A stretch of DNA of 64,000 nucleotides from the NCBI GenBank assembly GCA_965285935.1, contig OZ260663.1:81778001-81842000 (forward strand), written 5' to 3'. The DNA comes from Ophelia neglecta (taxonomy: Eukaryota). The notes beneath the pieces are model-generated. The model saw nothing but the letters and a program-made list of their open reading frames with translations, ran no database searches and was not told the origin of the DNA. Position numbers and translations under genes: made by a program. This document shows, in pieces, positions 1-53,619 of this stretch (the first letter of the stretch is position 1; each line of letters starts with the position of its first letter).

Positions 1-269
1 GATTGTTTTTGCCTTGAATAGTGTTGCTCACTCAATCGCTGGGTGACAGCACTACTTGGTTAACTAAACCAACGAAGAAGTGGACGTTCACTAGGTGGCG
101 CTATGCACTAACCAGTGCCTATTTAAATACTTCACAGCACTCCACAACAACTGCACGTAGTCATCGCCGTGACAATACTTCCTAGTAAATTTAATATTTT
201 CGAGTTTCGCATTAATAAATAAGCAAATAGGTGATGTATATGTATAGAAGAAGTGTGCGACAAACTTAC

Positions 270-365
270 CCGTAGCTGCCAAAAATCACCGATCTGTTGA
301 GAGCGCGAAAAAAAGCGCTCTGCTAATCGATTAAATTCATCAGCTGAGATTGAACCTGCCGCCAT
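270..365 (-). CDS. ATG10: Ubiquitin-like-conjugating enzyme ATG10, coding exon 1 (gene continues off the left edge)
   Basis: ATG at 365-363; 32 codons MAAGSISADEFNRLAERFFSRSQQIGDFWQLR followed by a GTAAGT donor (acttac at 264-269). The F..F...SQQIGD.W..R motif matches the recalled N-terminus of metazoan ATG10 (human EFIKHSQQIGDSWEWR). Confidence 0.8.
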
Positions 366-1381
366 CGAGGTGAGAGGGGGAGGATGAAAGATCAGCGGAA
401 CCTTCTAGGGCTGAGCACAAGGTGGATATGAGGGGTGGGAGGCTTCAAGCTGTTAAAGTCTACAGGGAAAGAAAAACAATGAGAATTCATATGGTGTGAT
501 ATAGAACGAGACGTTTTAAGAAGGCTTGAATGACATTCGTTTCATCAACAGCATTCTATCAGTATTGTCCGCGGGTTTAGTTTTTTTTACTGCGATTATT
601 GTCATTCACGGCGTACAACAAATCTGTACAAGCCCTATGGATCGGGAGAGGTGGTTTCTGTATCCCCATCTGAAGTAGTTCAATGAACACAACTGGGTCA
701 AAATGATCCGCCGTGTTTAAGTTTTGACGCAAATTATGAATGAAGTGTATATTTTTGAAGAACTTCTGTACTAGCTAACTTGTGCATTTGCTCTGACAAA
801 TTTTAGGTATAAAAATCGCAGTCAACTTGCCACTCAGACCATTGAACGGCGCCCAATGCCGGGCGTGAACAAAACTACATACACAAGCCGGCATCTTTTG
901 TTCACTGCAAGCCCAGAGCGATAGTGTCCTAATAACATTGGCTGTTACAAACTCCTCCCCAAAACCGCTTCTACATATTTCAACATTTCTTAATGTAGAC
1001 GATATGTGGGCATGATAAAAACTGACACCATGTCGAAAATGTTAATTTAAAACCACGTTGGGTTTTCTTTAGATGTCTGCTATTTTAAAGCAATTTTAAA
1101 TACGCTTATAACTTGCCATTTATTCTGGCCTCCGAGGGGTGTTGCTCAATCAATACAAAAGCGAGTTTATCTACAAAGCAGATTGGCGTATTGCCAGCCG
1201 TTCTTTATCGTTGCGCCCATGTGATATTTTGACTGGACGGTTTCAGGACACCTCGGGCAGCCTAAATAAAGCCAACCAATCAGCGTTTTTCTTGGCTCAG
1301 GTCACCGTCTATGTTACCATGACTACGGGGTCAGTGTCGGCCCTGATGCCTTGACAGGTGTGTGACAGTTCAGCAGCAAGC
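366..1381. promoter_or_regulatory. Putative bidirectional promoter shared by ATG10 and SSBP
   Basis: 1016 bp between two divergent ATGs. Visibly CpG-rich compared with the introns. CCAAT boxes on both strands (ATTGG 937-941 and 1182-1186, AACCAATCAG 1274-1283), RFX X-box-like GTTACCATGACTAC at 1313-1326, Inr-like TCAGT at 1331-1335. Confidence 0.7.
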
Positions 1382-1437
1382 ATGTACGCCAAGGGAAAGG
1401 GGTCCACGGTCCCCTCGGATGCCCAAGCACGAGAAAA
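1382..1437 (+). CDS. SSBP3: SSBP exon 1 ([19 protein letters not shown])
   Basis: ATG at 1382, canonical SSBP N-terminus, GTAAGT donor at 1438. Confidence 0.96.
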
Positions 1438-4400
1438 GTAAGTACTTATCTATTTTCTATTCATCAGATTGGTAGAGCTGGTTAGGATCTACCCGGCGCA
1501 TTCGTTTTGCTAGACCAGGTCATCAGGAATTTTGCAGAAACCGCTCATTTTCCACCTGTTTCGGGGGATGTCCCCTCTTCCTGTAGTGTATAATGGCTGT
1601 TCCGGTAATCAAACGCACCCAAAAATGGCGCTACACAGATGTAAATAATGTTATTTTGATTGTCAGCGTCGATTGTTTTAATGGTATTTGTTCTCAAATA
1701 AAACTTTAAACATGTATTAATTAAATTTACTAGCTTTCTTGTTAAAACAACAAATGTAAACGAAACATATCCAGCGATTTATTTTATTTAAAGAGAGACC
1801 TTTGGTGTTAATCCACATCAGTCCCAGCATCTAAATGTTACTGTGTTGTAAAGACTACGAGTCTGCACATCTTATGCCAATATTATGTCTCATTTGGTGC
1901 TACCGATATCAAAAATGTCTCTCCTTTTTCCTTTCAGATTAGCGTTATATGTATATGAGTATTTATTACACGTAGGAGCACAGAAAAGTGCACAGACATT
2001 TTTATCAGAAGTAAGTGAACCTTGTTTTCCCCTATTATCACTCCCCTAGACCCTCTATGTATTTACATCCACAAGGCCTTCTCAACAATCGTCGAATATT
2101 AATTTCATTCGTATATTTAGTTAGTGAATTGATTTAGGTGGTGAATATATGCCCTGCACTGTATGTCAGAACCAATTCTTTCCACAGTGTCATTTCGTAA
2201 AGATGTGCTATTCAACTTCAGTGAAACTAATGGAAAAAATTAAATGAATATATGAGAATATTGCCCTACCCATTGACCATTAAACTGTTCCCTGTGATGG
2301 GTTGTAAATTTGCAACTTCCCTCTACCTCAATATTCAAAGGGAGCCTAACCATTAGTAGGCTGTGTGCTACTACTAGATGATGTTATACATCTAGAATTG
2401 CAGCCCTTCCACTGCCATAATGTCTGCCAATTTCAATGTGGGCACTGACATTTGAAAAAATTGAACAGTTGACCATCAGTTGAATGGAAAACATCTACAT
2501 GTGATCAGTATAATCTGCATTCAAAAAAAGTGGTTTAATACTTTTGGCAATGATTTCCCTGTGTGATCAAGATTAACTTTGACAGTTAAAAAACTGTGCA
2601 TGACTTTCTAAGGCTGTGATTGTTCTGCTATGAATCTGTGTTGAAATCCGCAGTTCTAAAGACTAAGATTTAGAGGGGATGTGAGACCAAACCAGTGATT
2701 AGTGGAGTCAGTACAAATGTGATGTTTCAAAACAGAGTCTGAAGCTACATTCGCCTAAACCAGTGCCTTTAGTCATTGAAATCAGCCTGAATTCCCCAGT
2801 TATACTCATGATATTTAAATATTCATATAACTAAATGCTTGCTTAATCATTGAAAAATAGCTTTCTTGTTGATCTTTTGCAGTTGGGGCAAATTGCACAA
2901 AAAGTTTTTTAATTGTACAAGTTACTTCCCAGACTAAAGCCTTGTCTAAGTATGGTATTAATATATTTTGAATAATCCTAGTGCATGTAGTGCATTTTCC
3001 ACTCAGATACCAGGTGCATTTCAAGGCAATTCAGAAAAACTTGTTTTGTTATATTTACATATCATAAAGCCACATTCATTCTAGTTCCTCCTACTCCCAG
3101 TAATCATCGAGGCTCTCAAGGATGGAAACTATTTAAACAATGACACCAACAAATAGTTTTGAATAATACATGGACCAAAATCAATGTTCAGTCATATCTG
3201 GAGATATGTTGCTTGTTCAGGTTTCTTTTATGATAAATGTTTTAATTTCTATTGCAGATAAGATGGGAAAAGAACATAACATTAGGAGAGCCTCCTGGGT
3301 TTTTACATTCGTGGTGGTGGTAAGTTTCATTCTTTTTCTTTTGGCAACAAGATAATGGTAACTACTTTTATATGTTGAATGATTTGAAATATATGTTTAA
3401 AACCCATATAAAAGTAGTCATCATCAAATAAACACTAATAAATGTTAATACGAATAAACACTAATGCTGATTTCACACGAAATATGTAACACAAAATATT
3501 TTTTTGATTAAAGAATGAAAACATTGTAACAATATAATGCAAGATCATCCAAATATTGTTTGAAATTGTGGTAACAAAGTACCCTGACAGCCTAAATATA
3601 TGTATAAATATAATGATATCATGTTTGATATGATATCATGTTTGATTCCCTATGTCAAAGAGACAGGTTTGCCATCTTGTTGCTGATGAAAAGCTTGCTC
3701 TGTTGTTGCATTTCTTTCCCTGTTGGCCTCGCAGGTTACACTTCTTACCTCCCTGAATAATACACTGCATTACCCACAATGACATAAATACAATTGAGAT
3801 CATTCAAGACACAGTTTACAAGTCTGTGTATACAATTGATGTCCCTGCATGTGTTTACCCTTGAGTAAGATGAAGCCATCAGTAGTAAAGGTCCTTGTCC
3901 AATGGACTGTGTGTTCTTTAACTTGCAGTTCTTGGTCCACATTGTTAACACTACCCCAAGCTCACTGCACCCTGTCCCACTCTCATTATTCCCCCATGCC
4001 CTGTTACCTGCAGTGGCTGTTGCCATTGTGGGCAATGCTTTTGGGCTTGTTGCTTTTGACTTGAAATAATAGGCTGTTTTGGTTTAGGCACCAGTATTAC
4101 ACTGTCTGATATGAATATATATATACAACTGGGCAATATTTTATATAAATCAGCTGTATTGATTTTTAAGCATACAAGTTGTACTACTTATGGATGTTGT
4201 TCTACATTTTGGGTTACTTAAGGTCAACTAAAAATAATGTTGTATTTCCTATAACAAGTCAAACACTTTAAGGTTAAGTATGTTCTTTAGGTTACTCTGG
4301 TTAAGTATTGGTTCCTGGTCTTTTTTTTACTTGTTCTTCCCTCTAAATGAATCACCATTCAACCATAACTAATATGAGGGCTGTTTTAATACCTACATGT

Positions 4401-13400: not shown

Positions 13401-16400
13401 ATGCTCTAGTGATAAATCCTTGTAAATTATAAAACACTGCTACATTAAACTAGGTGCCCTTGGCAATTCAATGGGTTTAAACATCTGATTCAAGTTATCG
13501 TAAATATTTTTGTGCTTAGGAAACAATGACTTACAGTAGCGTAATTATCCTATCAAAGAGTGTGCTATATATCACTGTTTGTATAATTATTACTGGTGTA
13601 CCCATCCAAAATGTGACAACAAAAATCAAATAAATAGTGGTATCACACTATACTAGTGTGCGCTAAGCTATTTGTATTAATCTATTGTTTTAGGTTTGGT
13701 ATGTAGTCTTGTCACTTTTCTCTCTCAGAATTTCATATCAATATTATAAAGGTTGCAGTGAGTGATGCTGCTGGAATAGAAATGTTTAATTTATTTCATA
13801 TATGTACCAACAATTCCTAGACATTTAAAAGTATATACCAGGTACATTCACATGTACATGTATACATTTAGAAGCCATCTAGAAACCAAACCGTGTATCT
13901 AAACTTACTGGTGATTGCTCATAACTTCATTACTGATTGTTCCACAGCAGAACACCAACTCTTAGGCCTGTATTAATTAAAGTATTCTTGTTACCGAGGC
14001 AAATATATTTGAAATGAAATAGTTTGGGTTGGTAAAGAAAACACAAACGGTGGACATTGTTTTGAGTATATTACATTGTTTTAAAATGCTTTGTGTTTCC
14101 TCTGTCTTTAAAATGATGTTATCAGTAGGAATCTGAGACAGCCCAGTGTTAGTTAGTGCTGTTGACAAAGCCACTACCTTGTGCATAAAATTGTTCTGTA
14201 GTCAGTATTCCCCAAAGGTCATTCTGCAGCTATTTTTATTATGCAGAGGCTCTCTTTGGGGGTATCTCATTTCTTGCAGAAACATTTTCGATTGGTTAAT
14301 TATTGATTGATTTTCCCTGTAGAATCATATTGCATACACTTTTTTAAAACCACTGCCCTCTGTCTTCTACTGATAAACACCTATAGAGTAAACAAAATGT
14401 TTTGTGCAGGCTTAGCAGTAGAAATCACTTGGGACAAGCATGGTAGGTCCCAGCCTACTGTCAGTGTGGCTGTTACATCAATTGCCTCTCACCCCCCTTA
14501 TTTATCTTTTTTTTTCAGTGTGTTTTGGGATTTATATTGTGCGGCGCCCGAACGACGAGACACATGTGAACATTCTAGTGAAGCAAAAGCATTTCATGAC
14601 TATGTAAGTATAAAAATGAAGAAATTCAACAAATGCATCTATCCTCTAAGACGATCCAAAGCAAGTAGTTTGCTGCTTAATCTCCAGGTGGCAGTGCAAT
14701 CAGCAAGGCAGTCAGAAGTCAATATTTCATGCTAAGGTGTACATTAAATAGTGGAGGTGTACATGTGTATATATATGTGTGGCAGAATTTCTGATTGAGT
14801 GGCTGGTGTAAGAAATGCCAAGAAGTGCTGAGAATGTGCAATGTTTGAGTTAAACAATAACATGCCAAAAGTTTATGGCAAAGAACAACTTTAACAAAAT
14901 ACAAAAATTTATATCTCACTTTTATTCTAACAGTTTTATCAGCAGACAAGACACCTGTCAGAATGAGAAAATAGTTGTACTTGATTCTTTTTTTGACACA
15001 ATTATGCCATTAACAATGTAAATATGATATAAATGGTAAACAGTATTAAAATAGTTTTGGAGCCATCAACCCACATATTAGTGCAAATAGATTGGCTGAT
15101 GTCAGCAGACTTGGCCTTTCTAACAAGAAGTAAAAGGCAAAACATAGAGACAAACCTTTATGATGGCACTGAAATTTAAGTAAACATCATATACATATAT
15201 ATATTGATGATGAAATTACAGTGTTTCAATGCTTAGCAATTTGTCCACCACCTACTGTAGATGTCGCTAAATTTTCATTGCAGAATTTCATAATAATTTT
15301 AACATTTATATAATGGTAGAACAGTGAAGGCATGAAGATAGCACATGTTTGTTTTTGAAGTGAATAGCCCAACAGGGAAAAGCTTTGTTTTAAATAGTTT
15401 GTTTGTGTTTTCAGTGGTTTAACACCTTTACAATGATATTTAAGGACCCTGTCAGAGTTTTTGTAAGCGCACTGTGTGTATATTACCAAGGACCAATATA
15501 TAGGACTATATTATTCTGCTCTGTTCTTCACATACTCTAATACTCACAACATTTCATTGTGCTCCCCCAAACCATAAAATCAGGAACAAGGCATAAATTA
15601 CAATATGACAAACTGTAGTCTACCAAACCTGGCCAATCTTCCCTACAAGCCAGTCGGTGACTGACTGTCTCAAGGGAAGAAATGTTGTTTATTGGAGTTC
15701 AATAATCCTGTCAGTTTTATATTTAATATGTGTTTGATAATGGTAGATCTATATTCTAAAGTATTTCACATGAAAATGTTCTAGGAGTGGTTGGAACCAC
15801 ATATTTCATACATTTTTCAATATCTGTAATCCATTTTCTTCACAAGGCCACCTGACCAGCAGACAGGAGAGTGTTTGTCTGTGCCTGTGAGGAAGCCGGC
15901 AGCCTGTGATAGCATCTAGCCCTGTACAGTCAGTGTCAGTCAGAATGGCTGATCCTCCAATCACAGGAGGAGACAAACACTTAATAACAGTGGCTCAGCC
16001 ACCACCAACAGACCTGCTCAGGCAGGGCAACCAAGGGGGCATTCCATCTGCCTTTTGGGGATAACAATCACCAAGAGCTGCTGTTTATTACACCACAACA
16101 GGCTGTCCCCCCTTCCATACCCACCACAGGGCCTAGCCCTACTAGCCATCAGAGGGTAGTACCTCTGCTGTGAGAAGTTACCCAATCCGCATTGTGTCCG
16201 AACAGCTGAACAATGCTGAATGGCCTTCTGAAACATATATTATGATCTAAAAAGGTACACTATGTATAAAATGTACCTCGAACTACAAAGCCAACTTAAG
16301 GCATCTCAATTTTACCTGCATGCTATATGAATCAGTCACACATGAATACATAAATAATAAAGGACATGGTGACTGGACTAGGCACAACTTCTAAATGTGC

Positions 16401-19400
16401 TGAAGAACAGATTTTGAAAATTCTTTAAGTCTAGCATATTTGACCATCTTTATGAATGGCAGGAGATGCCCCCCTTCATTCCTAGCTAGGCCAACAACAC
16501 ATGCACATAAACCTCACTTAAAACAAAACTCATGACTATACCTATACACACAGTAGCATCTCGTGGCATTCTCTCAATACCTATAGCTATGATATAGGTA
16601 TTGCATGACCTTTGGGCTTTTTACCAAAGAACAAAGATAAAATATTGTTTGAGAAATCAAAATATATATAGTACCCTAATTTCTAATATCTATGTAAAGT
16701 TCTCCACCAATGACAAATAGCTTCTGTTTGTAAAATAAAAAAAATTATAGCAAATTAAAAAAATACGTATTGAGGCAGAGATTGCCCACTAGTGTACATA
16801 TTTATGGTATTTTTGCCCACACTGGTTCATGAAGAGGACAAGACAATGCTGTGAAATGTGACTGTGAAAGGCCATCTGGTGAGGCAGAGAAGCAGCTTGC
16901 CGGCCTAGCCAGGTGACATGTTCTTTTCACCTGTCCAAGCATTGTACTGGTCTAAAGCTGTCAGGTGTAGTGATGTAGCCACAGATAACAACACATCCAC
17001 TGTCCTCCGACTTCTCTGTACACCACTGTTCTACTAGATGAGGTTACAGACCTATTAGATGAGATTCTCAACTTGACTAACAATAAAAAATTGTCCTTTA
17101 TAGAAACAAATAACATTCACTACCTGATTCTATGAACACCTGTTACTTGCTGTATTTAAAAGCCTACCAATTTAAGCGCCAAAGGTATAATTAAATTATT
17201 AAGTTTCTTAATGCCTAGTTTGTGCCTCGTTATATGGAGAGGGGCACAGAAGTGGGCAGAAGAACGTGTGCCAACAATTGTATTCAAATCTAGTTTAGTT
17301 TAAAAAAAAGTCCGGGCTGTTTTTATGAGTGTCGATGCACATTGTACAATTCTTCCAAGTAGAATTGGTGTATGCTTTCTGATAACTGCAGAATGTTCAC
17401 CTCTCCTGTGCCAAGTGGCTGTCATGGTTACCGAGATTTTGATATACCGGTATGTGTGTGCACATTTCTACTTGTGAAGTTAAACTGAAAAAATTACTGT
17501 TTGGATAATTTATTAAATGTAACAAATTTTATGTGAAATACAGATAAGAACACATATATATGCAAGATTTTCCAAAAAAAAACTTGATACTCCCAAAACA
17601 AACAATGTATTTCTTTTAATATTTAATGTTGTAGTAATCTTGGAGATATACTCTATATCCTAGAACAGTACCTTACGGTAAAAAAGGTCCCGTATTGGGG
17701 TTGGGGTGGGGGTGGGGGATGGGGGGCAAGAAGTTATATGTACATACATCTGACCACACCAGGGCAGAATAAGGTAAAAGAACAGCAGGTCTTTTTAGTG
17801 GAAATACGTATATAAGCAAACAGGAGATCTAATAACGATGTCCTAGCTCTGTACACTGGCTAACGATGTCATAGCTCTGTACACTGGCTAGCATTAATAC
17901 ACAATCATACTTGAATTTGGCTCAGCAACACCCTTTTAGGCGTAATTTTATCTCCAGTAATGACACCTTCTCATATTTTTTACCTCATGCTGCCCCTGCC
18001 TGTGTCATAATCTTGTGGGCAGAAAATGCAAGAATGATTGAAATATAAAAGGTAACTAGTGACCCATCTGACTGGCACATCAAAAGGGAATGAATACAAA
18101 AACAGGGCAACCTTTACCACTACAGCACAATTGTAAGATACATTTAACTATTATAAGATACATTCAACAATTGTAAGATACATTTATCAATTATGCTTAA
18201 TATACTCTTTGATTTCCTTTCTCTCTCGCAACTGTAGGGCATAGGGATCATCAATATAGAGTAATTAACTATGGCCAGAAGTATCGTCTATGGATGAGAT
18301 TTTACCTTTCCACATTTGGTGGACAAAGCCATATTTGTTATACAGTGCTTTAAATCCAGTGGATTTATATTATAAGTCTGCCGATAGATGCAGACAATAA
18401 AATAGCACGAAAATAAAGACTTTTGATGCAAATCAATTATTTAAGCCATCCCCAGCGTCCCCACTGTAGATCATGGGTATGTAGCATGGCTGAAATGCCA
18501 ACATGGGATTTTGACGACAGTCGCCACCCAGAATAGGTGCACTCATAAAATATAGATGGCATTCTTTTGATATGCCTCTCCCAGAAGGTGTAGACGGGCT
18601 AAAGTCTGGGACCACAGGTAATCTGGCTCCCATCGTTCCATCCTAAACTGCTACCTTGTCGCAATATTCCCCGCCTTTGTCCAAACCTTGTTCCAGAAGA
18701 AAAAATATCTGTCTATATTTGATTTTACCTACATGTATACCTTGACAAGGTTCCTAGAATATCTATAGACATGTATGATACCACTGAAGAGACTGTCAAT
18801 TACTTCAGTACAAATACACATATCAGTGTGCCTGAAACTGTACTTACATGTGCTTACATGTATATTAGGAGATTTTTTTGGGATTGTCTGACCCATCTAC
18901 CGCAAAAATGTTAATAAAGATCTCACAGTAGTTGGAAAATTTCATTTACTGGTGTGCCAGTACTTGGCATGAAAATTTATGGTTGCCTCAAGTTATTAAA
19001 GTTGTAGCTTTCATTAAATTTATGAAGATAATTATAAAATAACATTCAGCTTTCAGTTATGATATATGCACTTTTAATACTGACATAGGTAATAAATTAT
19101 CTTTTTTTTCTTTTCAGGGTTTTGTAAATTCAGGGTATGGTGTAAATGGAATAGCACATGTGAGTACCATTTATTATTAGTAATCATTAATAATGAGTGT
19201 TAAAATCTATAATATAAAAACAAAACCAAAAAAAAAAAACAAATAGACCTGAGTCAAAAAGGATATACACATATCTCTAATATACATAATATAGGTTAAT
19301 GGATTGAAAAAAAGAATTTAACAAGGATGGGCTAGTTGAAAAAATTAACAAAGCAATTTTTAAAATCAGTAGACAAATTAGAAATGAAAATATATAATAA

Positions 19401-21172
19401 ATACAGTCTTCAGTACATATATATGTATCATTATTAAAAGCAAATAAGTATAGGAACAAGCATTAACAAATGAAACTTATTGTCACTATTAAGGTTTGTT
19501 TGACATCCGCACCAAAAAATATAAAGAGTTATTAGTGCTTAAGTTAGCCAAACAAGAAACAAAATTAAACATATTTCCAAATAACTCATTTCCATGGATT
19601 CACTATAAAAGGTAGTTATATGTTGCTTGCTCCAACTATAGTAGATGCAAACAAATGTCAAATTTAAGTCCTAAAACTAGCCAGTTTAAAACCATAGCCA
19701 CAATTTTCACATGGCAAATTGGTGTTTTTTACGGCACAAGTTGCCTTAGAATAGTTAGTTTGGTTGAGATACATTGAACATGACAGTAGTACATATTAAC
19801 ATAATTACTGTTATGTGTGCCAATGAAAACTGGTTTGTCACTGCTGTATGCACCTCAAATTATACCCTTGATTCAGTCGAAGATGAATAGCTATTTTTCC
19901 ATCTGTATATTGCATATGTGTACATGTATGGCCATGTATGGCCATGTTTGAAAGCAGTAATACAAGGCTGTGCCATCTGTGACAAGCTATAGGCTAGAAA
20001 GTTACAGTTTTGTGCTGGTCAGTGGAAGCAACTGGGCGCTGTGGAGACACTATATCCACAGAGTCTACATTATGTCTGTGACAGCTTTATACCTTGTATC
20101 ATGACTGACATCAATGATTCCGACATTTTTATGCCGAGGAGCTCCTCGTCACATAAGGCCATTATCAAGGCAGCCTTTGTGAACAAAACCCAAAAAAGAA
20201 TGATTGCAGATTGAAGTTCACAGTTCCCCAAAAAGGCAAAATTCTGCTTTTTTCCTTGTGCTTTATTGTTCAAGAAAAGATCAGCAAAATATTAAATTTT
20301 GAATAAGCATTGTTACGAATTGAATGTCTATTGTGATTCCAATGAGGCATCCCTGCAGCTCGATCAGCACATTCATAGTATAATGAATGTTTGGACTGGT
20401 CAACAATGACTAATTAGTGTGTACACCAAACTTGTCTTCAACAATTTATCAAATTTATACTGTGCCTCTGCCAATGGTTGGTTCTGTTAGATGGAGTTTC
20501 TCTAATCCAAAGACAGTACAATGTATATTGTATAGTAAACTTTCACCCACTGATTTTTATTTGAGATAATACTGCAGGCTTTGTATTCAAGTTATATAAC
20601 CTGACCAGGAGTCTGCTGCTCAGGACAATGATCATCATTTCTTTTGCCTAGATACCTTTTAAAAAATACAGATGTCCATTTGATATGTGATTGCATATTT
20701 AGAAATCTGGGGATTTTCCTTTTATTTTTATCAACTTGAAATCTGCTGCCATGGCAACCAAATCTTAAACATTTGTTGTGGCAATGGTGACTCAAGAAAT
20801 TTAGGACTGATTTAAACAGAATGGGTACGATCTATGCATTATACCACATGGATGAAAACCTAAGTTAAAAGAAACTATGAGTTACACTTCTGATAGGGAT
20901 ACAAAGTTCAACTTTACTGGGAGTTTTAGGCTTTGATGTATGATCATTTTTATATTATTAACTTTTATATGAAATATAAAAGCTAAATATCTTAGCATCT
21001 GCTTATATCATCAGAGATGCTCAATGTAAGCTTGTTCTACCGTGTACCAGTATATCAGTATGATGGTAGAGGATTCCTTCACACACAAAATGTCACCTTT
21101 CATGGCAAGCAAATTGCTACCTATTTTGTCTTAACTGGTTATAGAGATCCAAGACACAATATATATACATAA

Positions 21173-21209
<37 letters not shown>

Positions 21210-24200
21210 AATTGATTTGTTAAGTTGCACATTGTTAAAGTAGGTTATCTACCTGACCAGATCTGGCTACAGCCACTTATTGTGTACATCAGATAGATTT
21301 AGGTTTGTCAAGGTAAGTTGTATGCTTGTATGACTGTGACAGTTGGAGTACGAATGTACAAGGAAGTTACCAGTGTGCCTAGATTAATGGCTTCATTGAA
21401 ATGGAATCGAACCAATAATGTTCTCAGTCCAAGTTTTATTAAGGCTCTCAAGATATTCTTTAGTCAAATGGAATTGTCATTTTTCTCCTTACTAGAATTG
21501 AGTAAAATGTAATGTTACCAAAATGCTATATTTTTATGTTCACCACATTAGTCATAGTGCCATCACATTTCCTGTGTAACACTGGTCTAAACATTATTTT
21601 AACTTGTTGTCAGTATCAACTAGAGTCCCGGCTCTAAAGAATGCCGGTACACAAACGCGTCTTTCTACTCGCAAGCCGTGATGCCAGGCTGCAACATGCT
21701 GGCCTCCAGATTACTGTGATTGGGCAATTGTTAAGCCATGAATTTCTTGTGGCATGGTCGGTACCATAGCTTGTGGAGATGCCTTTAGTTGTTATCTTTT
21801 TGTTTTAGTTTATTATAATCTGGTATTTGACAAAACTTAACATTTCTCTGCCTTCTTCCAGGCATTTTGTTGAAATCACACACACATTAACTATACACTA
21901 TATATTTCTAGCTAGGTTACGTGATACTTGCCAAGTTGTACTGCCTGTGCTTAGCACCCTGTCATATTGACTAGACAAAGCTAGGTAACATGGCCCCGGG
22001 CATTCTGAGCGGTTGACCGAGAAATTCATTCATTTGAAAAGTTGCCTATGCTGGGAATCAGCCCTGTGCAGAGTGCATGTTGGTACACCCTAAATTCACT
22101 GCTGATACCTATGCTCTAAGTCATCAGTTGAGATATCAAGCCATTGATTTTGTTGCCTAGCAGCTTCTGTTCTGCCATCTCTTAGTACCATCTCGGAGGA
22201 TACCATACTGTGTATACTACTACACTTAGGCTCTACAAAATGAATGTTGTGCTTCTCAGTTGTGCTCTCATACTTCACACCTGCCCCCTAGTTTCTCTTA
22301 TTATTTTTTTTTATTCAAACATCCTCAATGATAAACATGGCCAAAAGGATATTTTTAAAGAAGTTAGGATATAATGAATAAATAATTCTCTTCCCCATCA
22401 CTTGGCATAAACAGTGCTTGGGAAATCCTTCTTTCTTATTAATACCGATATATTAAAACAAAGAATGACCTGGCTTAATCCTTTGAACATATGAAGTGCA
22501 TCTACGAAAGTTTGGATAATTAATAAAATAAAATAACACAACATCTGCCTGTATTGTAAGAAAAAGTGCCTGAGTAAGAAAAATAAGAATACCCCCTTTT
22601 GAAAAATTGCCCCCTCCCCCCTGCCCCCTTGGCTCACCCTTTTGAAACAAAGGTGCCTGAGAAATATTACATTAAATTTGTTCGACCGTAAAGGCTGAAA
22701 TTTCAAACCACTTTATTCCAACATCAAACCAAATTCAGAGTGGCATTTTGTTTTAACGTAATAAATACAGCTTAAGAGAAAGTGATTTAGACAAAATATG
22801 CCTCTCTGAGCCGTTTACTAATGACAGTGGATTTCTATCAAAGAGGACAGGCATGAAGGGACTCTAGGTGGTTTTGAATATGTCCCTCCGATGTTTGTAC
22901 TTGGTTCCATTGGACTTTGGCCTTTTTCACTGATGAATATCGTAAATATAAATGTGTACATTGACGAGCCTTGCCTGATAGGTTACTTTGAAAAATTTGT
23001 GGCACTTCCTATTTTTACATGATAATAAGAAGTAAGCAGACATCCATTTTTTATATTAATAGCAAAGCAAACCCTTCCTGTATCCAACAGACAAAGCAAT
23101 TAAATATAATATTATATGTTATTTGTTTTTGTATTTGAGTTTACTATTGACTCCTGAACAGAATAAGGTTTAAGATATGAGCATCATGATTTAGCTTTAT
23201 TCTAGCAACAATTATCTTCCAGTTTAGTATAGAGATATTATTGCCATCATGATTTTCCTAGAGGATGTGAGGATGAAATTTTATCAATATGAATGCAGGG
23301 AGCCAGTGAAGTCAGTTGGGTAGGAAATGTTAACACTGGAACAATACAACACCCTCCTATGCACAGTATTGATTTGTGGAGATCCACATGCTCTAGGCTG
23401 GTTCCCGCTGCCCGAAACTATGTCCACATAGAATAACATTTTTCTTTTGTGCTCAGTGTAAATCATCTTCTAAGAAGTGAGGAAGAATGTACCTTTAAAG
23501 TGCTTTATATTTGGTAAAGTTTGCAAGAAAATGATTTTGAATATGACAAACAGTTGTCCATAAGAGTGAACATTTAGTATGATGTCAGGAAGCAGTCTAA
23601 TTTGACTATTGATTTTTCAGCAGATCCACATGGCCTTACACTAGGCTGGAGGCCCCATCTGGGGATTGTCGGAATTGTGGACACTGTGGGAGATGATCCT
23701 GTTTTGTAGGTTTCATTCTTGTCCAGAGTATATGCAATATGGCACCCTTAGCTAGCTGTATACTGTGTCTACTTCTTTTGGCTACTTTCATGCAAGTTGA
23801 GAAAACAGACAAACCAAATTATGCGCTTCAAGGCCTTGATTTTCCAGTAAAGGCTCCTCTGCTCTTAGCCACTTGACAACCTGTCCCCCCTTTGTGGTTT
23901 TAGTTTGGTATGGCCCTGGCAGGTAGGGATTGCAGAGCACATGGCTAGGCCGGTTGGCTTGCTTCCAGAAATATGAACAAGTGGAAAAGACTGCTGTGTA
24001 CCTGTCAAAATAGAAATGTTCTCTATTATTCTAAACAATAAATAAGGCATTTGTTTTTCTCTTGACGTGTCATTTCCTTGGCTATGAAATTTGATATCAA
24101 ATATGTGGCAGTTCACTTATTTCAAAGACTTTAGAAATGGGCATTCTTTTAGTCTCTGAACTCTTTCTGGAACTGAAATATTGTAAAATATTCCTCTTGG

Positions 24201-27200
24201 AGTGGTGATCTAACTGAATATCTAAGATTATTTATAGAAATTCATTTATACCAGTGTCACACTGACTATAAGAGTTAAGAATTTAACTGAAACAGTGTGT
24301 GCATTACTGCCCATTATATTATACTTAACCAGAATCATCAGAATTGAAGGATAGCAGTGAATTATATACTGGCAAATGTCTGTTGCATCAAAACCCATGG
24401 GTCATATTGCTGTAGTGAAATGAACACAGAAACTGTTAAATTTGTCATTACAATAATAAATCCATTGATTTTGTCACATTTCAGGGGTTTGTGTAGTTAT
24501 AATTTCAAGCATTATCTTAATGGAAAATTTATTCTCCACCCTGTACTTATTTTAAAACAGTTCCTCTTGAAATACATGGCGGCTGTTGTTCTATAAAAGG
24601 TATGATTGTTAGCTTTGGTTCTTTTCTTGGTGAAAGTGTTGAAACATCCCTGAATACTATGGTTATCTGGGGCGAGGCTATCTCTCCGACAGTTGGTGGG
24701 GTAGATGCTGGTTCTGTTACTGGTTCTTCTATGACTGCTCCATTGTTCAATCCATCACCTCCGCCAGCCAGACTGATACAGGGCGGAGGGCAAGGGGGCA
24801 GCCTTGAACAGTCACCAAACGGCTCCTACATCTGCCACCCAACCGCCACTACCTGCCACAATTTGTGGCTGGTCATATTCTACAACTCCACAGCCTCTTC
24901 CCACACTGTGGGAGTTGTTAGCCTTCAGGTGCTGTCTGCACTACACTGTACTTTTTAGACTGTGCAGTTTTTAAGAAAAAAAGAGCGCAGCCTATTTTCA
25001 GAAATTAGTTTAAATTATTGCAGTAATATTTTGATGATTCAGAATTTTGGTAGCAGTTGGTTACACCTCAATGATTAATGAAAGCTAATTACAAGTTCAA
25101 CATCACCAGTTGTACAGAAAGGATTCAGTACCAAAGGTATAGCCCTAGCTAATTAGCATAGTGGTGACAAATTACATAACAAGTCTACATGGCTCTGGTA
25201 GAAGATAGAACTTGCTGAAACTGGCTGAATGCGTTTTGAACTGGTTATTAGACTAGTGTGGACAAGCCCATACATGTAGGTGTACTAGTATTTTAAAGAA
25301 CCTGTAGATAGGGCCCTGGTTAGTGTACATGCATCCCGGGGGGGGGGGGGGGGGGGGGGGTACTCCCATTATTTTTGGGTGGGGGTGTGCGGCTGGTACC
25401 TGGCAAACCCTACCCTTGAATTAGGGACATTATGACTTCAAACCTACCCTTGATTTAGGGACATTTTGACTTCAAACTTGGCACTTTGTTATGACATACA
25501 TGTAACCTCGTGGAATGGAATACAGGTTATTCACTGCCCTAGGCAATTCAGAATCATGCCCGACAGGATGAATTTTTTTCTAGAAACCATACCCTTTATT
25601 AGGGAAGAAATCAACAAAAAGGTACCCTTGGTTTAGGGAAGTTTTGAGGAAAAACGACCCTTCTCGGCCGCACATACCCAGTATGCCGGATAATGGGAGT
25701 ACCCCCCCCGGGACATGCATGACCCAATACTGTCACACATTTCAGTTTAAATGTAGTAGTTATAGTTTAGCCTTAAACATATTGATAATTGAACAGTTGT
25801 ACTCAAAAATATTCCTAACATCATACCCTGATGTAACAGGACATTTCATAGGCTCCTTGTGCAAATACGAGGGGGCCTGTTGAAAAATAGCTCAAGTACA
25901 GAGCCATAATGGAGTTTTAATAGCTTTGCGGGCTGCAATGAGGGGTTGGCAAGGGGGGCAGGGTAAGCACATCTCGCTTTCACAGTGCATGTGCTAGTAC
26001 TTGTGTTTTTTGCCTCATAATTGTCATATTTTCAAACAAGTGCAGTCATGCTTGCAGGACAGTATTTGCTGTTTAGTTGTTGATTACCTGTCTGGATGTG
26101 TTCAGACCTTTGCTCTATCCAGATAAGGCTCTTTAGTGCGAATGTACCACAATCCACACATGACTACTTCACTTAAAAGGACTATCTGACCTTAGATGTT
26201 TTAAGTCCAATACATGTATATACAGGTGTTTATCCAAGAAAAAAAATGATACTAAATTGTATTAGCTGCATTGAGTATTAGGGTAATACTATCCTGGCTT
26301 TTTTTTTTGAGGTAGATTTAAACATTTTAATTGATCATTGGCAACAAGGCCTCAGTAAATTTAGAACCTTGAGTGCTACTATTTTTTTGTTAGTTATTCC
26401 AGATTACTGTTTACTAGTATGTTATATATTCAGTACAGTTGCAAGTTGCTGGCCATTCATATTTTATGTCAGTGATGGGCTGATTCAGTTTTGTCATGGA
26501 GCCATGAAGTCTGCATGTTGGGTTCCCTCATGAGAGAGCAAATGGAGACTCTGATGGACACAAGAGTATATCTACCTTGCTAGTTAGCCTATCACAAATG
26601 GACACTGGACACTGAGTCTATCTGCCTTAGTAGTTAGCTTATCGTAGTTTTCTACAGAGTCCTAGTTTGACAGGCTTTATATAATAGTTTTCCTGGTCCT
26701 GACTAGATGAGATGCCTGTCCTGGCAAAAAAACTACCGCGTACCTCTCATCTAGGCTTCCTCTGTATATAAATGGTAGCTTACCCAGAGAAATAGCCGAG
26801 TGACTCTTCTAAGCGCTGAGAGTCACTCCTCTACACCTCCCACTACTTTTGATGTGTAAAATACCTGTTTACACCTGTGTACCAGTGTTACTAGTGATTT
26901 TATTTTGACTTTAGGTCATATTGGCAGCCCTTATATTGATATACAGATGTATGTACTTGTACATACAACTAAACAGTAGAGCTGTTTCCAACAGTGATTC
27001 ATTAGCTTTGCAAGATATATTTAAGATTTGAGTTTACTAGTATTTTGAATTTCTTTTGTTGGGGGTTATTTGAATGTTGAGCTAGAGCTGGGTTTGCTAA
27101 TGTGTGGCCCAGCCTTATTCTTAAATGAATGTTGTATCCTTTCAATATTATACATATATCTCTATTAGATCATTTTATGTTCCTCAGGATTCCTCTCCTG

Positions 27201-30200
27201 ATTTGCTGTGGAGAATTCCAATAATTAATGTTTAAAAGATATTTTTACAGGAGCTATGAGAATATCTTGGTATATGTTTCAATGAATGGTGCTTGACTTA
27301 TTTCAACCCCTTGTGAAATTTGTGAACTAGAAGGACAATATGGTATTAAAGTTAACATATGCTTGAAGTTTTAAACAAAGTCTCAGTCACTGGTGATGAC
27401 CTCCTGCCTGTCCTTAGCCTTAGTGCCCATCTTTTGACAATATGCTTGAAGTTACTTCATTTCATGTTCTGTGACTGTACTTGCACAGGTTAGCCTTTTC
27501 TGCAAGGCATTTTCATATTGGAGCCATAGCATAAGAGAACCTAGTTCTGATCAGTTGAGTGACAGACCCAGCCTATTGGCAAGCTACCAGTGTTTTTTGT
27601 CAGCCCCATACAAGCATGCTGTAATTGATTAAAATATTTATGTCTAACATAACTACGTACAATTTAATGGGGGGACTTCTTTCTCCTTGACCTAAGGTTA
27701 ACCCCTCAAGGTGAGTGCTAGGACCTACCCAGGAGTGAAGCTGGTTAGAAGGAAAATGCTGACGCAGCCAGCATGATGTTTATTGGTGGCACCATAACAC
27801 AATATTGTTTGTTTCCCACCCTTTTTATTATACAAAGGGTAGGATATGTATTAGGCCAAGTCCTCAGCCATTTATTTTGGCTATAGCTTGTTAGGCCCAC
27901 AGTATCTATATCGGACAAGTATGGTATATATGCCTGGGAAATTTGTTTGAATTAGTAGTGCAACCGTAATGCCTATACTCCTTCCTCTAGAGCAATATGG
28001 TGACAAAAGCTTGTTCACAAGATTGCACAAAAAGTATAGGAATTACGGGGGTGAAATTGACAGGGAAGAAATGTTAACATAGACTCATAAATTTTTGGTG
28101 AAATCGGAATAAATTCATTGATAAAGCAATGCCAAATAAAATTGCGAGCGGAAAAAAATGTAAACCTTTTTTTTCTTTCTTGCTATTTCATGCAATTTCC
28201 AGTGTTTTGAGCAAATCAAATATTTGGGGGGGGGGGGGGGGTTGGGAATTTTAAACTTTTTTTAAATTTTTTGCTTCTGTTGCCATTTCCTATGATATCC
28301 AGTGTTTGAGCAAATATATATTTTGAAGATCTTTGTGGAGGGATCTGGGACTTTTTCACCTTGTCATGCGATTCCAGTGTTGAGCAAATTTAACATTTTT
28401 GGTGTGGGTCTTGGACCTAGCTTTGTAGCAAAATTTGCCAAATTTTTCCTTTTTTTATTGCCATTTCATGCCATTTTCAGTGTTTTGAAGAAGTTAATAA
28501 TTTGGGGGGAGGGGGTCTGGGACCCACTCTAGCTTTGACTTTGCAAGGAGCCATATTAAGACACCTGTTTACTATCCCATTCAATTGGTGGGATGCTTGC
28601 ATTTCTAAACTCCTTGTTTTCAGAATGTACTTATTGTCCTCTTTCAAAACAGGATGTTTACAGTTACTTGTAGGTAGACTGGACAACAACTCCTAGATGT
28701 GTTTGTGTCAGATTTTATCACATGTTCAGATTGTATGAGACCATGGGCTATGAATTCCTGTGGGGTCAAAACTACATTTGGGTGGTATGACTTGGAATAA
28801 GTTCATCCTAATTTTTAAGTGATTGTTACCCAGAGAAAGTTGACCCCCCCCTCCCCTCCCCCCCCCCCCCCCATTGTGTTTTAATTCATACTAATTTACA
28901 AGTGAACCCTCCCCATCTTATCATAGATCCAGAATCAATCAATAGTGTGCTAAATGCAACTGTTAACAGCATGGAAAATTGTAATAAATTTCTAGTGTAG
29001 ATAAAGACTACCATTAGAAAAAGATTTTATGGTGTTTCCTGCAGTGGTGTCTCTAAATATCCACACTCTTTCTGTGCTGCTCTCAGTGCCAATGTGAATG
29101 GCTAATAATCCAGATTTGTTCTCTGACTCAGTCTGCTGGCTGTTTAAGGCCTGTGCCTCAAGGATGGGCCAGCCTCAAGCCATTGTGTGGGTTCCCTTAA
29201 CCTTAACCTTTGACCTACATGCACTGTTTAGATGGTCAGTGAATGGATTTTGACCTGTGAATGTCCCCATCTCGAACCAGAGGTTCCTGCTGAATTAAAT
29301 GTTCCTCCGCCTGGTAAAGCCTGGTCACTTTCTTGGCATGATCCTGCTCATTTTCTCTCTTGTGAAGTCTATGTATAGCTATAGGACAAATTAAAATGAT
29401 GTTATTAATAAAGAAATATGTTTGATCTTTCTTGCTTTAATCTTGCTGGAAAGATGATCTCCAAAATCAAGGCCCAAGTTATCTGTTTTTCTGACTATAA
29501 TTGGTAAATAGCTTAAACTAGACAGCCATTTGTGTCAGGTAATTGTGCATTTCTTGAACATGGGCTGGTTTTCAAGACACCATGATCATAGAAATATACT
29601 CTTTACTGTATGGGAGGTGGTGTCTTTGTTACAAAAAGATTCATCTGATATTTTTGACGTCCATGAACGAGCAGTATCTTTGGAAATTGATATTGTTTAT
29701 TAAGGGTTTTTGAGCAAGAACATATTGTGTGAGGGAAAGGTCGGTGCTGAAATGTTTTTTGTCACTTGTAGGGCTGTTATATATATGCAACATTTAGCTA
29801 GTCTTGTCTACAGAAAAACAATCATTGAGTAAAAGCTCTTCATTGTTACCTACACTAGCTTACTGCAATTAATGTCTTCCTTTTGTTGCCAATGAAGTAG
29901 TTTTTTTATGCTGAAGAAAGCTCCCAGAGGGGGTTGAAGCTCTGCCTACTCTGACTACTTCTAATCTGGGCTGGAAACAACATGGCAGTTTTGGCTGTAA
30001 GATGCTTGCAGCCAAGGCTGCTGAGTAAAAGTTACAATAGTATATGGGACATAAATCCAAGGCACAAAACTTCCAAGACTTGCATGTAAGAACCCTTGTG
30101 ATTGATCCATACTCAACTTGAATGAGTTTTGATGCAACTACAACTTCCAACCAATGACAGGGCAGTTTACTGCACTGTTTTGGATTCCGTAACTGGCCAT

Positions 30201-33200
30201 TCTATGCGACTCTATGCCTGTTTTGTGCTGTTTCCTGTCTCTTTCTAGGGATATTTCAGAAAGCAATGCAGTTGCTGAGATTTGGAACCTAAACCTAATG
30301 ATAAGCACACATTTGCATGCATATACCAAAAATAATCACACAAACTAACCAAAGTTTGCATAGCCATTTTGTCAAAAAATTATCATCAGAAATTGGCAAC
30401 ACCCAATCTGAGTCATGCGCCCTCCCCTCCGATCCCCACCAGGTACTGACAATGTACACCCTTACCCATTAAGGTATACAGATTCACATCCATTGTTACC
30501 TTAATAGTATTACTCTTGAAAACTGGAAAGGTCCAGAAGAAAAGATTTGCCACATCAGAACATTTTTCCTGAAAAATATGAAATGGCCTGAAAAGAATTG
30601 CCTATTCAGGACATGTCCAGAAGGTTATCAACGATAGGAAAAACACTGCAACCAAGAAACTCCTTTGGACATGACACAGGCCAAATAATCTGCATTACAG
30701 TCTGTGGATGCTCCTCCCATTTTTAAAAAGCCCCGTGAATATCGAGAGATACATCTCAGATTAAGGGAGTGTGTCCAACTTAACACGTACATGTAGGGGT
30801 ATGTTTGTTTTTTGTGCCAGAGTATTGGGCAGCTAGGAACACCATCCTAGTTCCTTGAATATGTGGTCACTCCGTGTTTTGTAGTTAAAGAAGTCATTTT
30901 GGTGGTTTAATAGTTTATTTGGTTAGGGGAAGTTTGGACATTTTGCTCATCCCTTCCCAAGCTGGCAGAGTAGATTATATTGAAGAGTCTGTGTGCCAGT
31001 CTGTGTCTGTCCGGGTATGTTTAAGTCTGTGTCAGGTAATGGGTCAGTCCATGTGCCTGTCTGTTGGTCAGTCTGTGGGCCAGGGAATGGGTCTGTTGGT
31101 TGGTCAGTCTGTGTGTCAGGGTATGGGTCAGTCTATGTGTGAGCCTATGTGTCAGGGTATGGGTCAGTCTGGGTGCCTATCTGTGTCAGTGTATGTGTCA
31201 GTGTATGTGTCAGTGTATGTGTCATGGTTTGGGTCAGTGTATGAGTCAGTCTGTATGCCTGTCTGTGTGTCAGTCATCAGTCTATGTGTCAGTATGTGTG
31301 TCAGGGTATATGTGAGTCTGTGTGTCAGGGCTTGTATATGTCCATGTTTCAGGGTATATGACATTTTGTCAGTTTGGGTGTCAGCGTATGTATGTAGGTA
31401 CATGTATGTGTGAGGGTTTGATTCAGTCAATGTGTAAGTCAGCCTACATGGCAGAGTAGGTGGAGTATAAATGGACATGGTGTACACAGTCATGTATCTC
31501 AGATTAAGGGACCCTTGTTTTGGGGTATGCATCAGTCTATGTGACAGTCTATGTGACAGTCTATGTGACATGGTTACTAAGCTAGCAGTCTATGTGACAT
31601 TCTATATGACAGTATGTGACAGTCTATGTGACAGTCTATGTGGCAGAGTTACTAAGCTGGCAGTCTATGTGACAGTCTGAGACATTCTACTTGACAGGGT
31701 TACTAAGGTGGGGTATCGTACATATTGTACATGAGATATACATGTTGTATCTCCGATTGAGGGACTCTATATGTGTCAGTCTATGTCAGATGGTATGTGG
31801 TAGTCGGTGGGTTAGCCGTCTAATAGATTGGGAAGCAGTGGTGTTTCCTGCTAGGTATCACCTGATCAATCACACTGGCAGTCACAGCTACACCAGCCAG
31901 GACCAGAACAGTCCAATACTAATCTCATTGGCTCCCTCCACTGCTCCATCCTCTACTGCTATACCTAAAATCAATGAGGAGTCCTGCCCCATGATCTCAA
32001 GACACTGTCATCAACATCTTATGAGATTTGAGTGGGCTTTTCTTCTGCTATTTCATTATAAATAAACACAGATTGTGCAAGCCATTTTTGCTATTTGTTT
32101 TGGCCCTTTGCCGAAGTGGTTAGTCACAATGAAACTTTACAAGTGTTGTTTTTTGAAGGTTTATCATAATATCAAGATGCTATGGGTACGATTAAAACTC
32201 CTTGTTCATAAGCATTGTTCCATCAGCACCTTTAACTCTTTTCATGCCTATTGTCCAGAGGGTAAAGATGTCACAACCCAGGGATATGTGTGCAAGGGTA
32301 ATTAAATTAATCACACTATTACCTTAGATTAAGACCTAACCCTGCCTATGCTAGATGGTTTCATACACTTGACACAGTTTGCCCTGTAGCCTAACCACCG
32401 CCAGTTCTTTACACATGTAAGCAGGTTGGTAAATACTGTTCACTGAGTTGTACAGTCTGTTGGGGGAGTTTAATGTATACCTGGGCCTGTTGTTAAACCT
32501 GCCGTATTTGTTTAGTGGTGACAATGGCACCCTACAACCCCTCCTAACAAATCACGGTCTGGTGCAAATATTGACCAACATTCTTGGTCAAGCTTGGGAC
32601 ACCATGACGGTCTCGTATTCTGTGCCTTAGTTTTACATGTATGTATTGTGAACAAGTGTGAAAAAGAAAGTGTGTGATAAGCAAGGAAATCCTCCTCAAT
32701 ATACTGGACAGAGCAAAATATAAGTCTTCTTTAGCTTTAGAATTGATGCCCCTGGCTCAAAACAGTGTGAAAACCAAAGTGTTCTGTTTGAATGATTTAG
32801 TGTGGACATTATTCTATTTAGTGTGGCTTGTGTCCCCTTCAGTCATATTTTACAGGTTACACACTGACTATGTAGAGTTTGGCAGAAATTTCATTACTTA
32901 CATTTGGCTACTACCAAACTATGTAGCAGTGATTACTGATAGTAGGTAGGCAGAAAAGTGGCGTACACTGCCGACTGGCACACAGGGACATGTCAGGGGA
33001 GGTATCGATTCCTGCCTTCTACATGTGGGGTAGGGTGCCAACTATTCTGCAGGAGGGACATTTTGGGAGGGGGGGGGGATCCAAAATGTGTCCATAGGTT
33101 TTTTATGATCCCCTTTATTGGACTATATGTGGTATAAAGTAGTCTTAATATTTAATGTAATAACCAAATATCTTGTCTGACTTGTCATTTCATTATCATT

Positions 33201-51849: not shown

Positions 51850-53619
51850 GTAAGTGACTTGTGTAGTTTACATGAGTAGTAAGAATTATGGAAGAAAGTG
51901 GAAAACATATGGTGAAAGTAGTACGGTGCTTCTCTCCAGGGGGAGGTGCATATAGTCAGAAGTGTAACGCTTGGTCAGATTGTCAAATGGATAAATTCAA
52001 GTCTCCAACTGAGGTTCTTAATTGTGACCTTGAGAAGAGTCTGAGATCAATACCTAGCAGCCATGTAGAAAGAGTTTCGTAAATATAAAGATATTTATTG
52101 TCTCGCAATAAAAACCAAACAAAAACATTAATATTATACTCTATAGAGCTGTCAGTAAATGTCTGAAGTCATATTTATCTATAAAGTCAATAAGATAAAA
52201 ATGAAGTTTATAACCCCTCTTCACAGGAGAAAGACACCACCAGCAGTATTAAAATCCATTTATCACCTTTGGGCTCTTTATACCAATACTTAACATTTCT
52301 CTCCCTAAGAGCTAAGAGGCTTAGTGAGATAAAAAGTTTCCAACACTGATAGGTGAATGTTTACGCTACCTATTGTCAAGATAATAGGCCAATCTGGAAC
52401 ATCTTATGTTCAGTGCCAGTTTCCTGCTTTGCCATTGATATATTCTTCAGTGTGCTTACCAAAAATGACTAAGAGCTCGGGGTTTTTAGCCGACAAAGGC
52501 ACAGCGTGTAACCGAACTAGATATGATACATTTTCAGGAAATGAATAATGATGATCGATGTATCTAGATTAACCAGGCTACAAAGAAAACATCTTTAGGT
52601 ACTTCCCTTTCGGCTTATGAAACACCTTGCTTTAAAAATGTCAAGTGTAGAAGACAAAAGCCACTGTAAAAGTATCTAATATCCCGAGTGAATGGAAAAC
52701 AAGCTTTTAAAAAGCACTTCACTTTGTAGTTATATTTTACGTGTCACAGTACAAGATAGGCATGCTTAATATTTATTAAAGGAGTAATCTTTCAATTATA
52801 CTGTGTATCAAAGCTCTTACCTTGGATGTTGCGAAGGTGAATACTCTTGCCTCCTTGTCAAACGAGGCCAGCCCTCCTTTGTTAATCTTTCTGAAGCAGA
52901 ACACAGGTGCGAAGAAGTGTATACCTCGGCTGAGAATGTGAGCTGAATCTCACTCGAGTATCCGTTGGAGGTAATAACCACCTAATCCGATATGGAGCTG
53001 TTTAATAAATCACACTTATCCCACACCATTCACTGGCCACTGAGCACATAACTGGTATACAGCACCGCTTCCTAGGAAATTACTCAACTTTTCCATTCTG
53101 CTAGTAATCACCATAACTGCGTTGTATAATCCTAGTGTGGTAATATATTTGACTTGATAACTATCCAAAGGTAACAAATTGACAATGAATACAAGCTCCA
53201 CCATATAATAGTATTTAATCACAACTTTAGCACACAAGACTGGCTGAGTGTCTTACGATGATCTTTGTTTGATGAATTCCATTCCCAGGTGGTCACCTCT
53301 GTACCCAGCCTGATCCACAGGTTTTAGACTGATGAATCCTGCCCAATTCTGGCATGTACAATTGCAGGGTACATGACTTGCATGACGGTTTCAGGAGGGC
53401 AGATTATGAGCTGTCCGTGTATCCACAGATGTGACGAGTGACTCCTTTTTTTTGCCCGAGTGCCTGAAGGTGAAAAAGGCACACAGGATATTAGTGTTAT
53501 TTTCTCTGATACTTGATATTGAAATACAAGTAGTCCAGATGATCCAGATTGGGAACAACGGCTGAAAAGTACAAGGTAGTGAGGTTATCTATATACACAG
53601 GGCCATGTTTTTCCAATAT

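Follow-up and report, generated by a model that had tools for sequence, protein, structure and literature searches.

SSBP2=ATG10 is listed as ancient pair GRB192 in Tables S1 and S3 of Touceda-Suarez et al. 2020 (PMC7530604), the source being the set of conserved ancestral microsyntenic pairs compiled by Irimia et al. 2012 (PMC3514665). According to these tables, human SSBP2 and ATG10 hold successive ranks on chr5 (291/292) and lie 220,773 bp apart, SSBP2 being classed as the trans-dev gene and ATG10 as its bystander; this is the single linked copy kept in human, SSBP3 and SSBP4 being unlinked. The pair is scored in two of eight non-vertebrate species, under the key GRS=01010000. An 'Ssbp2 promoter' is, separately, one of the 25 bilaterian-conserved regulatory segments of Frith & Ni 2023 (PMC10735318, Fig. 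S32), where its aligned rows run from human to bootlace worm and carry the labels RFX, NRRE, PKNOX, MEIS, TBX and E-box. Conserved pairs are described by Irimia et al. as enriched for 5'-5' orientation and short spacers. For instance, HSPE1-HSPD1 and HADHA-HADHB are 5'-5' pairs with a spacer of ~1 kb in invertebrates and high measured co-expression, and HSPE1-HSPD1 lies <1 kb apart in human, with a known bidirectional promoter (PMC3514665).

The linkage, like the conserved SSBP promoter, has therefore been published before, and the observations reported here are mostly confirmatory. The joint observation, that an ancient promoter lies within a divergent spacer shared with ATG10, was not found noted, and the supplement of Irimia et al. 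2012 may hold the layout. ATG10 has no matches in the main text and supplement of PMC10735318, and the backing of the promoter onto ATG10 thus goes unremarked there. Among the papers listed and judged by title, none on the linkage was found in the literature on ATG10 with SSBP2 or Ssdp, nothing functional on this spacer was listed for the ATG10 promoter or the SSBP promoter, and SSBP, Ssdp and ATG10 are absent from the main text of Davies 2015 (PMC4613772).

The window, a stretch of 64,000 nt (G000:C5:81778001-81842000), comes from the 762-Mb genome of a lophotrochozoan. Near its start, two genes stand head to head, and the following features are referred to below.

270..365, minus strand: first coding exon of ATG10, 32 codons, with a phase-0 GT donor at 270 (exon-1 profile iE 7.3e-10)
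366..1381, no strand: divergent ATG10/SSBP spacer, 1016 bp, single-copy and CpG-retaining
368..449, minus strand: ATG10-proximal block, likely 5' UTR or core promoter, aligned in register with locus L077 only
460..479, minus strand: splice-acceptor-like tract, 94 nt before the ATG10 start, score 12.1 bits
1218..1244, plus strand: upstream part of the SSBP module, with E-box CATGTG (-164) and GGTTTC (-143)
1274..1283, plus strand: conserved CCAAT (NF-Y-type) box, the sole conserved one, 106 nt before the SSBP ATG
1313..1368, plus strand: core of the published 'Ssbp2 promoter', from the conserved alignment, with labels from Fig. S32 of PMC10735318
1313-1326, plus strand: RFX X-box-like palindrome within this core
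1327-1335, plus strand: GGGGTCA/TCAGT, NRRE-labelled, a possible initiator
1344-1368, plus strand: TGATG..TGACAG-N5-TGACAG with CAGGTG, carrying the PKNOX/MEIS/TBX/E-box labels
1382..1437, plus strand: SSBP/Ssdp exon 1, 56 nt, phase-2 GT donor, ATG at 1382-1384
1938..2010, plus strand: SSBP exon 2, LisH-like (weak PF08513 match, E 0.014)
3258..3319, plus strand: SSBP exon 3, from the tblastn exon map
14519..51851, plus strand: span of further SSBP exons, near 14519, 19118, 36552, 50564 and 51795

The locus resembles GRB192 in that the same two gene families are immediate neighbours, as in the two non-vertebrate species scored in PMC7530604. In contrast to the human gap of 220,773 bp that is filed as a genomic regulatory block, the spacer here is 1016 bp; the published rows give neither orientation nor invertebrate spacing, and here ATG10 is small and the long introns lie in SSBP. 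With the Ssbp2 promoter of Frith & Ni it shares, in a by-eye comparison, the position at the SSBP start and the motif string, that is, an X-box-like RFX site, NRRE, and PKNOX/MEIS/TBX/E-box over TTGACAGGTG-GTGACAG. Unlike the genes of HSPE1-HSPD1 and HADHA-HADHB, SSBP2 and ATG10 are 220 kb apart in human, and their proteins act in different pathways. One mouse preprint is reported to place peak expression in brain for Ssbp2 and in heart for Atg10 (bioRxiv 2022.03.02.482700).

The minus-strand exon at 365-270, with its start codon at 365-363, is identified by homology as the start of an intact ATG10 gene, of the Atg12-conjugating E2-like family. The other five coding exons are found beyond the window start, at G000:C5:81774270-81770954 (a distance of 3.7-7.0 kb), and together the six exons give a 657-nt frame of 218 aa with GT..AG at every junction, no internal stops and an HPC motif at residue 164. 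Two of the five exon pieces scanned pass the PF03987 (Autophagy_act_C) cut-off of 24.4 bits (27.5 and 31.8 bits), and the model scores 241 bits against a profile of 80 homologues. Its best matches are 36-44% identical; eight of the ten looked up are named, and all eight are ATG10 (Lineus, Anneissia, Batillaria, Patiria, Holothuria, Lymnaea, Patella and Lamellibrachia). Single ATG10 exons gave no match at E<=0.001 in word-index protein searches, and the homologues were recovered by a HMMER search of representative proteins where the word-index search had not done so. The gene spans 7.4 kb, and its largest coding-region intron is 4.0 kb. The single other PF03987 locus found in the genome is ATG3, which is separate, on C1. 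This ATG3 is one intronless 320-aa frame (L001:1480-2442, G000:C1 near 79.18 Mb), is the sole ATG3 locus scored in the genome search, and is possibly a retrogene replacement; its best named match is Lingula, with molluscs next. Downstream of ATG10, the next recognisable genes are minus-strand exons of an M1-family aminopeptidase (L005-L006), ~28-40 kb before the window start and apparently belonging to two tandem genes.

The plus-strand exon at 1382-1437 is likewise assigned as the first exon of an SSBP/Ssdp gene. The exons mapped by tblastn run from 1382 to ~14.3 kb beyond the window end, giving a gene of ~77 kb, most of which is its own introns; ATG10, at 7.4 kb, is thus the small partner and SSBP the large one. 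The exon chain is intact and holds a conserved N-terminal LisH/LUFS block and PF04503 matches, and the N-terminal exons are 86-92% identical to spliced SSBP records. SSBP works with LDB1/ChiLS. Within SSBP intron 3, a DDE_1 transposase frame (window 9625-10326, minus strand; PF03184, E 2.5e-21) coincides with a CpG-rich patch at 9-11 kb and may represent a DNA transposon of recent origin. Downstream of the SSBP end, at a distance of ~1.7 kb, is an open frame of 694 aa that matches no Pfam family (L009:1966-4047, plus strand; region of genome stretch 81862001-81872000).

Both gene identities given in the initial annotation therefore stand, as do its two divergent start codons 1016 bp apart (365-363 on the minus strand and 1382-1384 on the plus strand, with 366..1381 between) and its statement that the human genes are neighbours across a much larger gap (ranks 291/292 on chr5, 220,773 bp; PMC7530604). 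With this distance between the ATGs, the two start sites would be <1 kb apart if both lie inside the spacer. The description of the spacer as CpG-rich is apt for its CpG observed/expected ratio (0.81, against 0.31 for the window), but not for its GC content, which is just 43%. The CpG retention extends from ~1 to 2000 of the window and is likely the trace of an unmethylated promoter region in a methylated genome, as read from the CpG ratio. The CCAAT boxes on both strands are present too, but four CCAAT/ATTGG (853, 937, 1182 and 1276) against 2.44 expected (P=0.23) are not an enrichment, which was rejected as a candidate signal, and only one of the four is conserved. At this chance level, the CCAAT boxes alone carry no weight.

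The spacer is single-copy in the genome, and nothing beyond short two-copy matches was found in a search for repeats in window 1-2100. It is spanned by a single contig in three of three runs, all from one sample that is possibly the assembly's own source. This sample has 4 variants in 1-2000 and 37 in 2001-4000; with one sample and linked haplotypes, this difference is no evidence of constraint. The mitochondrial contig of the assembly (L116-L117, G000:C223, 17,755 bp), with frames read by eye, has an unusual-looking gene order, with nad1, nad3, nad2, cox1, nad4L and nad4 on one strand and cox2, cox3, cob and other long frames on the other. Its COX1 has AAA at conserved lysines and ATA at conserved methionines, which corresponds to table 5 and not to the echinoderm code. 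In a tree of 33 proteins, the host falls in a spiralian set of 20 rows (support 94/88, below the starred level), and it is accordingly taken to be a lophotrochozoan protostome.

Metagenome contigs were scanned with a degenerate SSBP exon-1 pattern, and the best 80 of 105 stretches were used. True SSBP first exons were present in 68 of the 80, and the 66 with at least 60 nt upstream fell into 46 groups (39 genomic, 7 spliced). A profile of 39 ATG10 N-termini, run on the DNA upstream of SSBP, detected a divergent ATG10 first exon in five loci, L077, L069, L021, L029 and L015 (iE 1e-7 to 2e-4), the next real match having iE 0.91 and the best reversed control 0.011. L021 also carries downstream ATG10 exons (iE 9e-23). 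Among the matches listed, the linked loci are thus 5 of 39 genomic groups, 5 of the 24 with at least 1.2 kb upstream, and 3 of the 16 with at least 2.2 kb; many of the ATG10-negative groups are close relatives of one another. The spacers in the linked loci are 615, 728, 1042, 1753 and 1998 bp, a roughly threefold range, and the orientation is divergent in all six linked loci, the window included. We take the human pair to be divergent as well. L029 is without an in-frame ATG at the ATG10 exon and appears to need an upstream, ATG-bearing ATG10 exon; its start may lie ~580 nt closer to SSBP.

In L015, which has a spacer of 728 bp, the ATG10 exon shares 91% identity with Amphiura filiformis ATG10 over 35 aa. 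L015 is therefore brittle-star-like, and the compact pair occurs in a deuterostome as well as in this lophotrochozoan. The best matches of the L077 ATG10 are annelid and gastropod proteins, and are weak (43-52%). The initial annotation placed the linkage before the protostome-deuterostome split and suggested that the compact locus may show the ancestral state; the first agrees with the pair being found on both sides of the split, and the second is likely for the same reason. Adjacency recurs in the five metagenome loci and in human, but a different gene precedes SSBP in three of six ATG10-negative loci scanned (Sds3-like/HECT, a kinase and Spaetzle; the scan covered 147 of 199 upstream frames), and the linkage appears to be broken in several lineages. 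The window, the five metagenome loci, the human adjacency and the published listing together agree with the definition of a conserved ancestral microsyntenic pair. Additionally, in the Nematostella column of an orthogroup table (PMC13317027), the gene IDs LOC5510671 (SSBP) and LOC5510669 (ATG10) are 2 apart. In the same column, the HSPD1/HSPE1 IDs are 1 apart and those of HADHA/HADHB and ISL/SCAPER are far apart. As IDs and not coordinates, they hint that the pair is older than bilaterians.

Conservation along the spacer is limited to 1206-1381 on the SSBP side and, with one locus, to 368-449 on the ATG10 side. Tiles covering ~450-1200 were compared with 10 other loci, and none stood above the reversed controls (top middle score 36, control maximum 34). 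A shared central element was accordingly dropped as a candidate, since the middle tiles score like those controls. Among the metagenome matches listed, 7 of 46 groups can be aligned to the 117 nt that precede the SSBP ATG (z 9-33, 0/200 shuffles each), and L069 aligns to this stretch more loosely. In 13 loci examined, the CATGTG E-box is present at -164 to -168 in the window, L061 and L077, and GGTTTC at -141 to -145 in the window, L015, L061, L077 and L087. CCAAT is found at -105 to -108 in the window, L011, L015, L061, L077 and L087. The string of RFX, NRRE and PKNOX/MEIS/TBX/E-box labels stands at the SSBP start here in the same orientation as published, and the TGATG..TGACAG..TGACAG pattern has one occurrence in the 762-Mb genome. 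The ~160 bp adjoining SSBP are, by motif content and a by-eye comparison with the supplement, recognised as the published bilaterian-conserved 'Ssbp2 promoter'. The spliced SSBP record L027, which carries the module, starts at the TCAGT, 58 nt ahead of its ATG; this is a weak hint at an SSBP start site there.

Three upstream ATGs lie in the conserved SSBP module, at 1311, 1319 and 1346 (window 1311-1357, plus strand), and the X-box ATG at 1319 is invariant in 8 of 8 aligned sequences; if transcription starts further upstream, these would give short uORFs. Two loci with an MFPKGKG-type N-terminus, L016 and L085, have a partial TGACAG-ATG module ~70 nt before the SSBP ATG (z 2.2), hinting at a second SSBP paralogue that keeps part of the module. 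A set of 13 loci from related animals (L012, L019, L025, L035, L036, L038, L043, L046, L049, L059, L066, L074 and L076) is without the bilaterian module and has a different conserved 5' element, with core GATTTAATA, in the last 100 nt ahead of the SSBP start codon. In none of these 13 loci did the search detect an ATG10 exon upstream of SSBP.

Module and linkage do not always occur together. ATG10 is linked and the module undetectable in L021 (z -0.1) and L029 (z 0.4), and in module-bearing loci no ATG10 exon was found within 4.5 kb (the L011 group) or 3.1 kb (L087), where a long 5' intron is possible. In human, the module is kept at SSBP2 (PMC10735318, Fig. S32) with ATG10 220,773 bp away (PMC7530604, tables). 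Among the matches listed, ATG10 is linked in 2 of the 4 groups that bear the module and in 1 of the other 12 (Fisher P=0.14, the groups being non-independent), a weak trend toward coupling.

On the ATG10 side, 368-449 aligns with the same position in L077 with a score of 47 (z 9.6, 0/1000 shuffles) and gave no alignment with the other four linked loci. In the ATG10 direction, no upstream ATG was found in 366-460. The acceptor-like tract at 479-460, chosen after the fact, lies above the 75th percentile of 64 true acceptors, and 0.35% of 2000 random stretches reach its 12.1 bits. It may mark a candidate non-coding first exon of ATG10; the best donor candidate, near 882, is weak (6.5 bits, under the lower quartile of true donors). 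L077 also has an acceptor-like site ahead of its ATG10 start, but this was not retained in favour of a 5' intron: it sits in the conserved block that L077 shares with the window, and the window lacks an AG there.

The arrangement could reflect several kinds of retention. We regard it as probable, by a modest measure, that two separate proximal promoters lie in one open region, with ATG10 a passenger in an ancestral compact pair. It is unlikely, in comparison, that the spacer is a true bidirectional promoter with co-regulation, in which a non-coding ATG10 exon near 900-1150 would be spliced to 459 and the NF-Y/E-box/RFX module would drive both genes. The strong acceptor-like tract, with no upstream ATG between it and the ATG10 start codon, would suit such an exon, but the best donor falls below the lower quartile of true donors. 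The CCAAT boxes at 1182 (minus) and 1276 (plus) face outward, but the minus-strand box at -200 is not conserved in orientation in other loci and the CCAAT count is at chance. The identical orientation in six of six linked loci also fits. The CATGTG E-box conserved in three loci may resemble the MiT/TFE sites that act on autophagy genes. However, ATG10 has its own conserved block beside its ATG (368-449), the human gap is 220 kb, and module and linkage dissociate. The initial annotation had proposed that a shared promoter or enhancers kept the linkage, which would couple the ChiLS cofactor to autophagy. Coupling by a shared promoter is not supported by the data: the module hugs SSBP and is kept in human with ATG10 220 kb away, L021 and L029 are linked without a detectable module, the middle of the spacer is unconserved, and several lineages appear to have lost the linkage.

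A classical genomic regulatory block, in which SSBP enhancers in or beyond the ATG10 introns pin ATG10 in place, is the published classification and is distinctly unlikely here. Table S1 of PMC7530604 places a trans-dev gene (SSBP2) beside a non-developmental bystander (ATG10), and in human ATG10 and the gap to the next gene amount to ~301 kb (522,106 minus 220,773), which is ample room for enhancers. However, in that source the label follows from gene category (a GO-defined trans-dev gene with a non-trans-dev neighbour), with no pair-specific enhancer test. Human bystanders average 2.7 introns >10 kb (PMC3514665), and ATG10 here has none, its 7.4 kb including a largest coding-region intron of 4.0 kb, while SSBP introns fill most of 77 kb. 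That an old neighbourhood persists on purely neutral grounds, in genomes that rearrange slowly and with separation carrying no regulatory cost, is very unlikely, even though ATG10 is kept in just 3 of the 16 genomic groups with at least 2.2 kb upstream among the matches listed. RPS23 is presumably the next human gene beyond the pair, whereas here RPS23-family genes are on C1 and the next gene is the M1 aminopeptidase; the ATG10-SSBP pair has thus outlived its surroundings. The published key of two in eight non-vertebrate species (PMC7530604) would also suit neutral survival, but the shuffles reported by Irimia et al. (PMC3514665) give a false-discovery rate <0.0002 for pairs of this definition.

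The preferred reading, two proximal promoters with ATG10 as a passenger, builds on the geometry, the CpG retention, the same layout in five other loci and the module set against the SSBP start. The head-to-head 1016-bp arrangement was likely inherited from the bilaterian ancestor, and ATG10 and SSBP each likely fire from their own proximal promoter, at opposite ends of one open and likely unmethylated region. We infer that the module, with its putative NF-Y, RFX, nuclear-receptor and TALE-type sites, controls SSBP, whose transcription would begin near 1330; the positions of the starts, factor binding and the mechanism of retention are all of this conditional kind. ATG10 would be a housekeeping passenger, proposed to stay because a breakpoint would have little room and a high cost in a spacer of 0.6-2 kb that holds two promoters, and because open chromatin would benefit it. 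The bond is loose: several lineages appear to have broken it, and in human the genes have moved 220 kb apart, with the SSBP module remaining at SSBP2. The passenger label is in part a conclusion by default, and a non-coding ATG10 exon may bring the ATG10 start nearer the module.

A bolder variant, with a slim chance of being correct, is that the ultraconserved Ssbp promoter was ancestrally bidirectional and drove ATG10 through a short non-coding exon, the vertebrate gap later giving rise to a genomic regulatory block. If this were true, the supply of an LDB/ChiLS looping cofactor would have been tied to the ATG12-conjugation step in the bilaterian ancestor, perhaps earlier, and vertebrates would have moved ATG10 220 kb off, turning a co-regulated pair into a regulatory desert. 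The conversion of a bidirectional promoter into a genomic regulatory block could then be traced at this locus.

Overall, the modest addition to the literature covered is that one of the 25 bilaterian segments shares a divergent spacer of 0.6-2 kb with ATG10 in invertebrates of both the protostome and the deuterostome branch. The pair is thus a cheap test case for what keeps old pairs together (shared promoters, enhancers within bystander introns, or little besides the small size of the breakpoint target), and for whether one kind of retention converts to another as vertebrate intergenic DNA expands.
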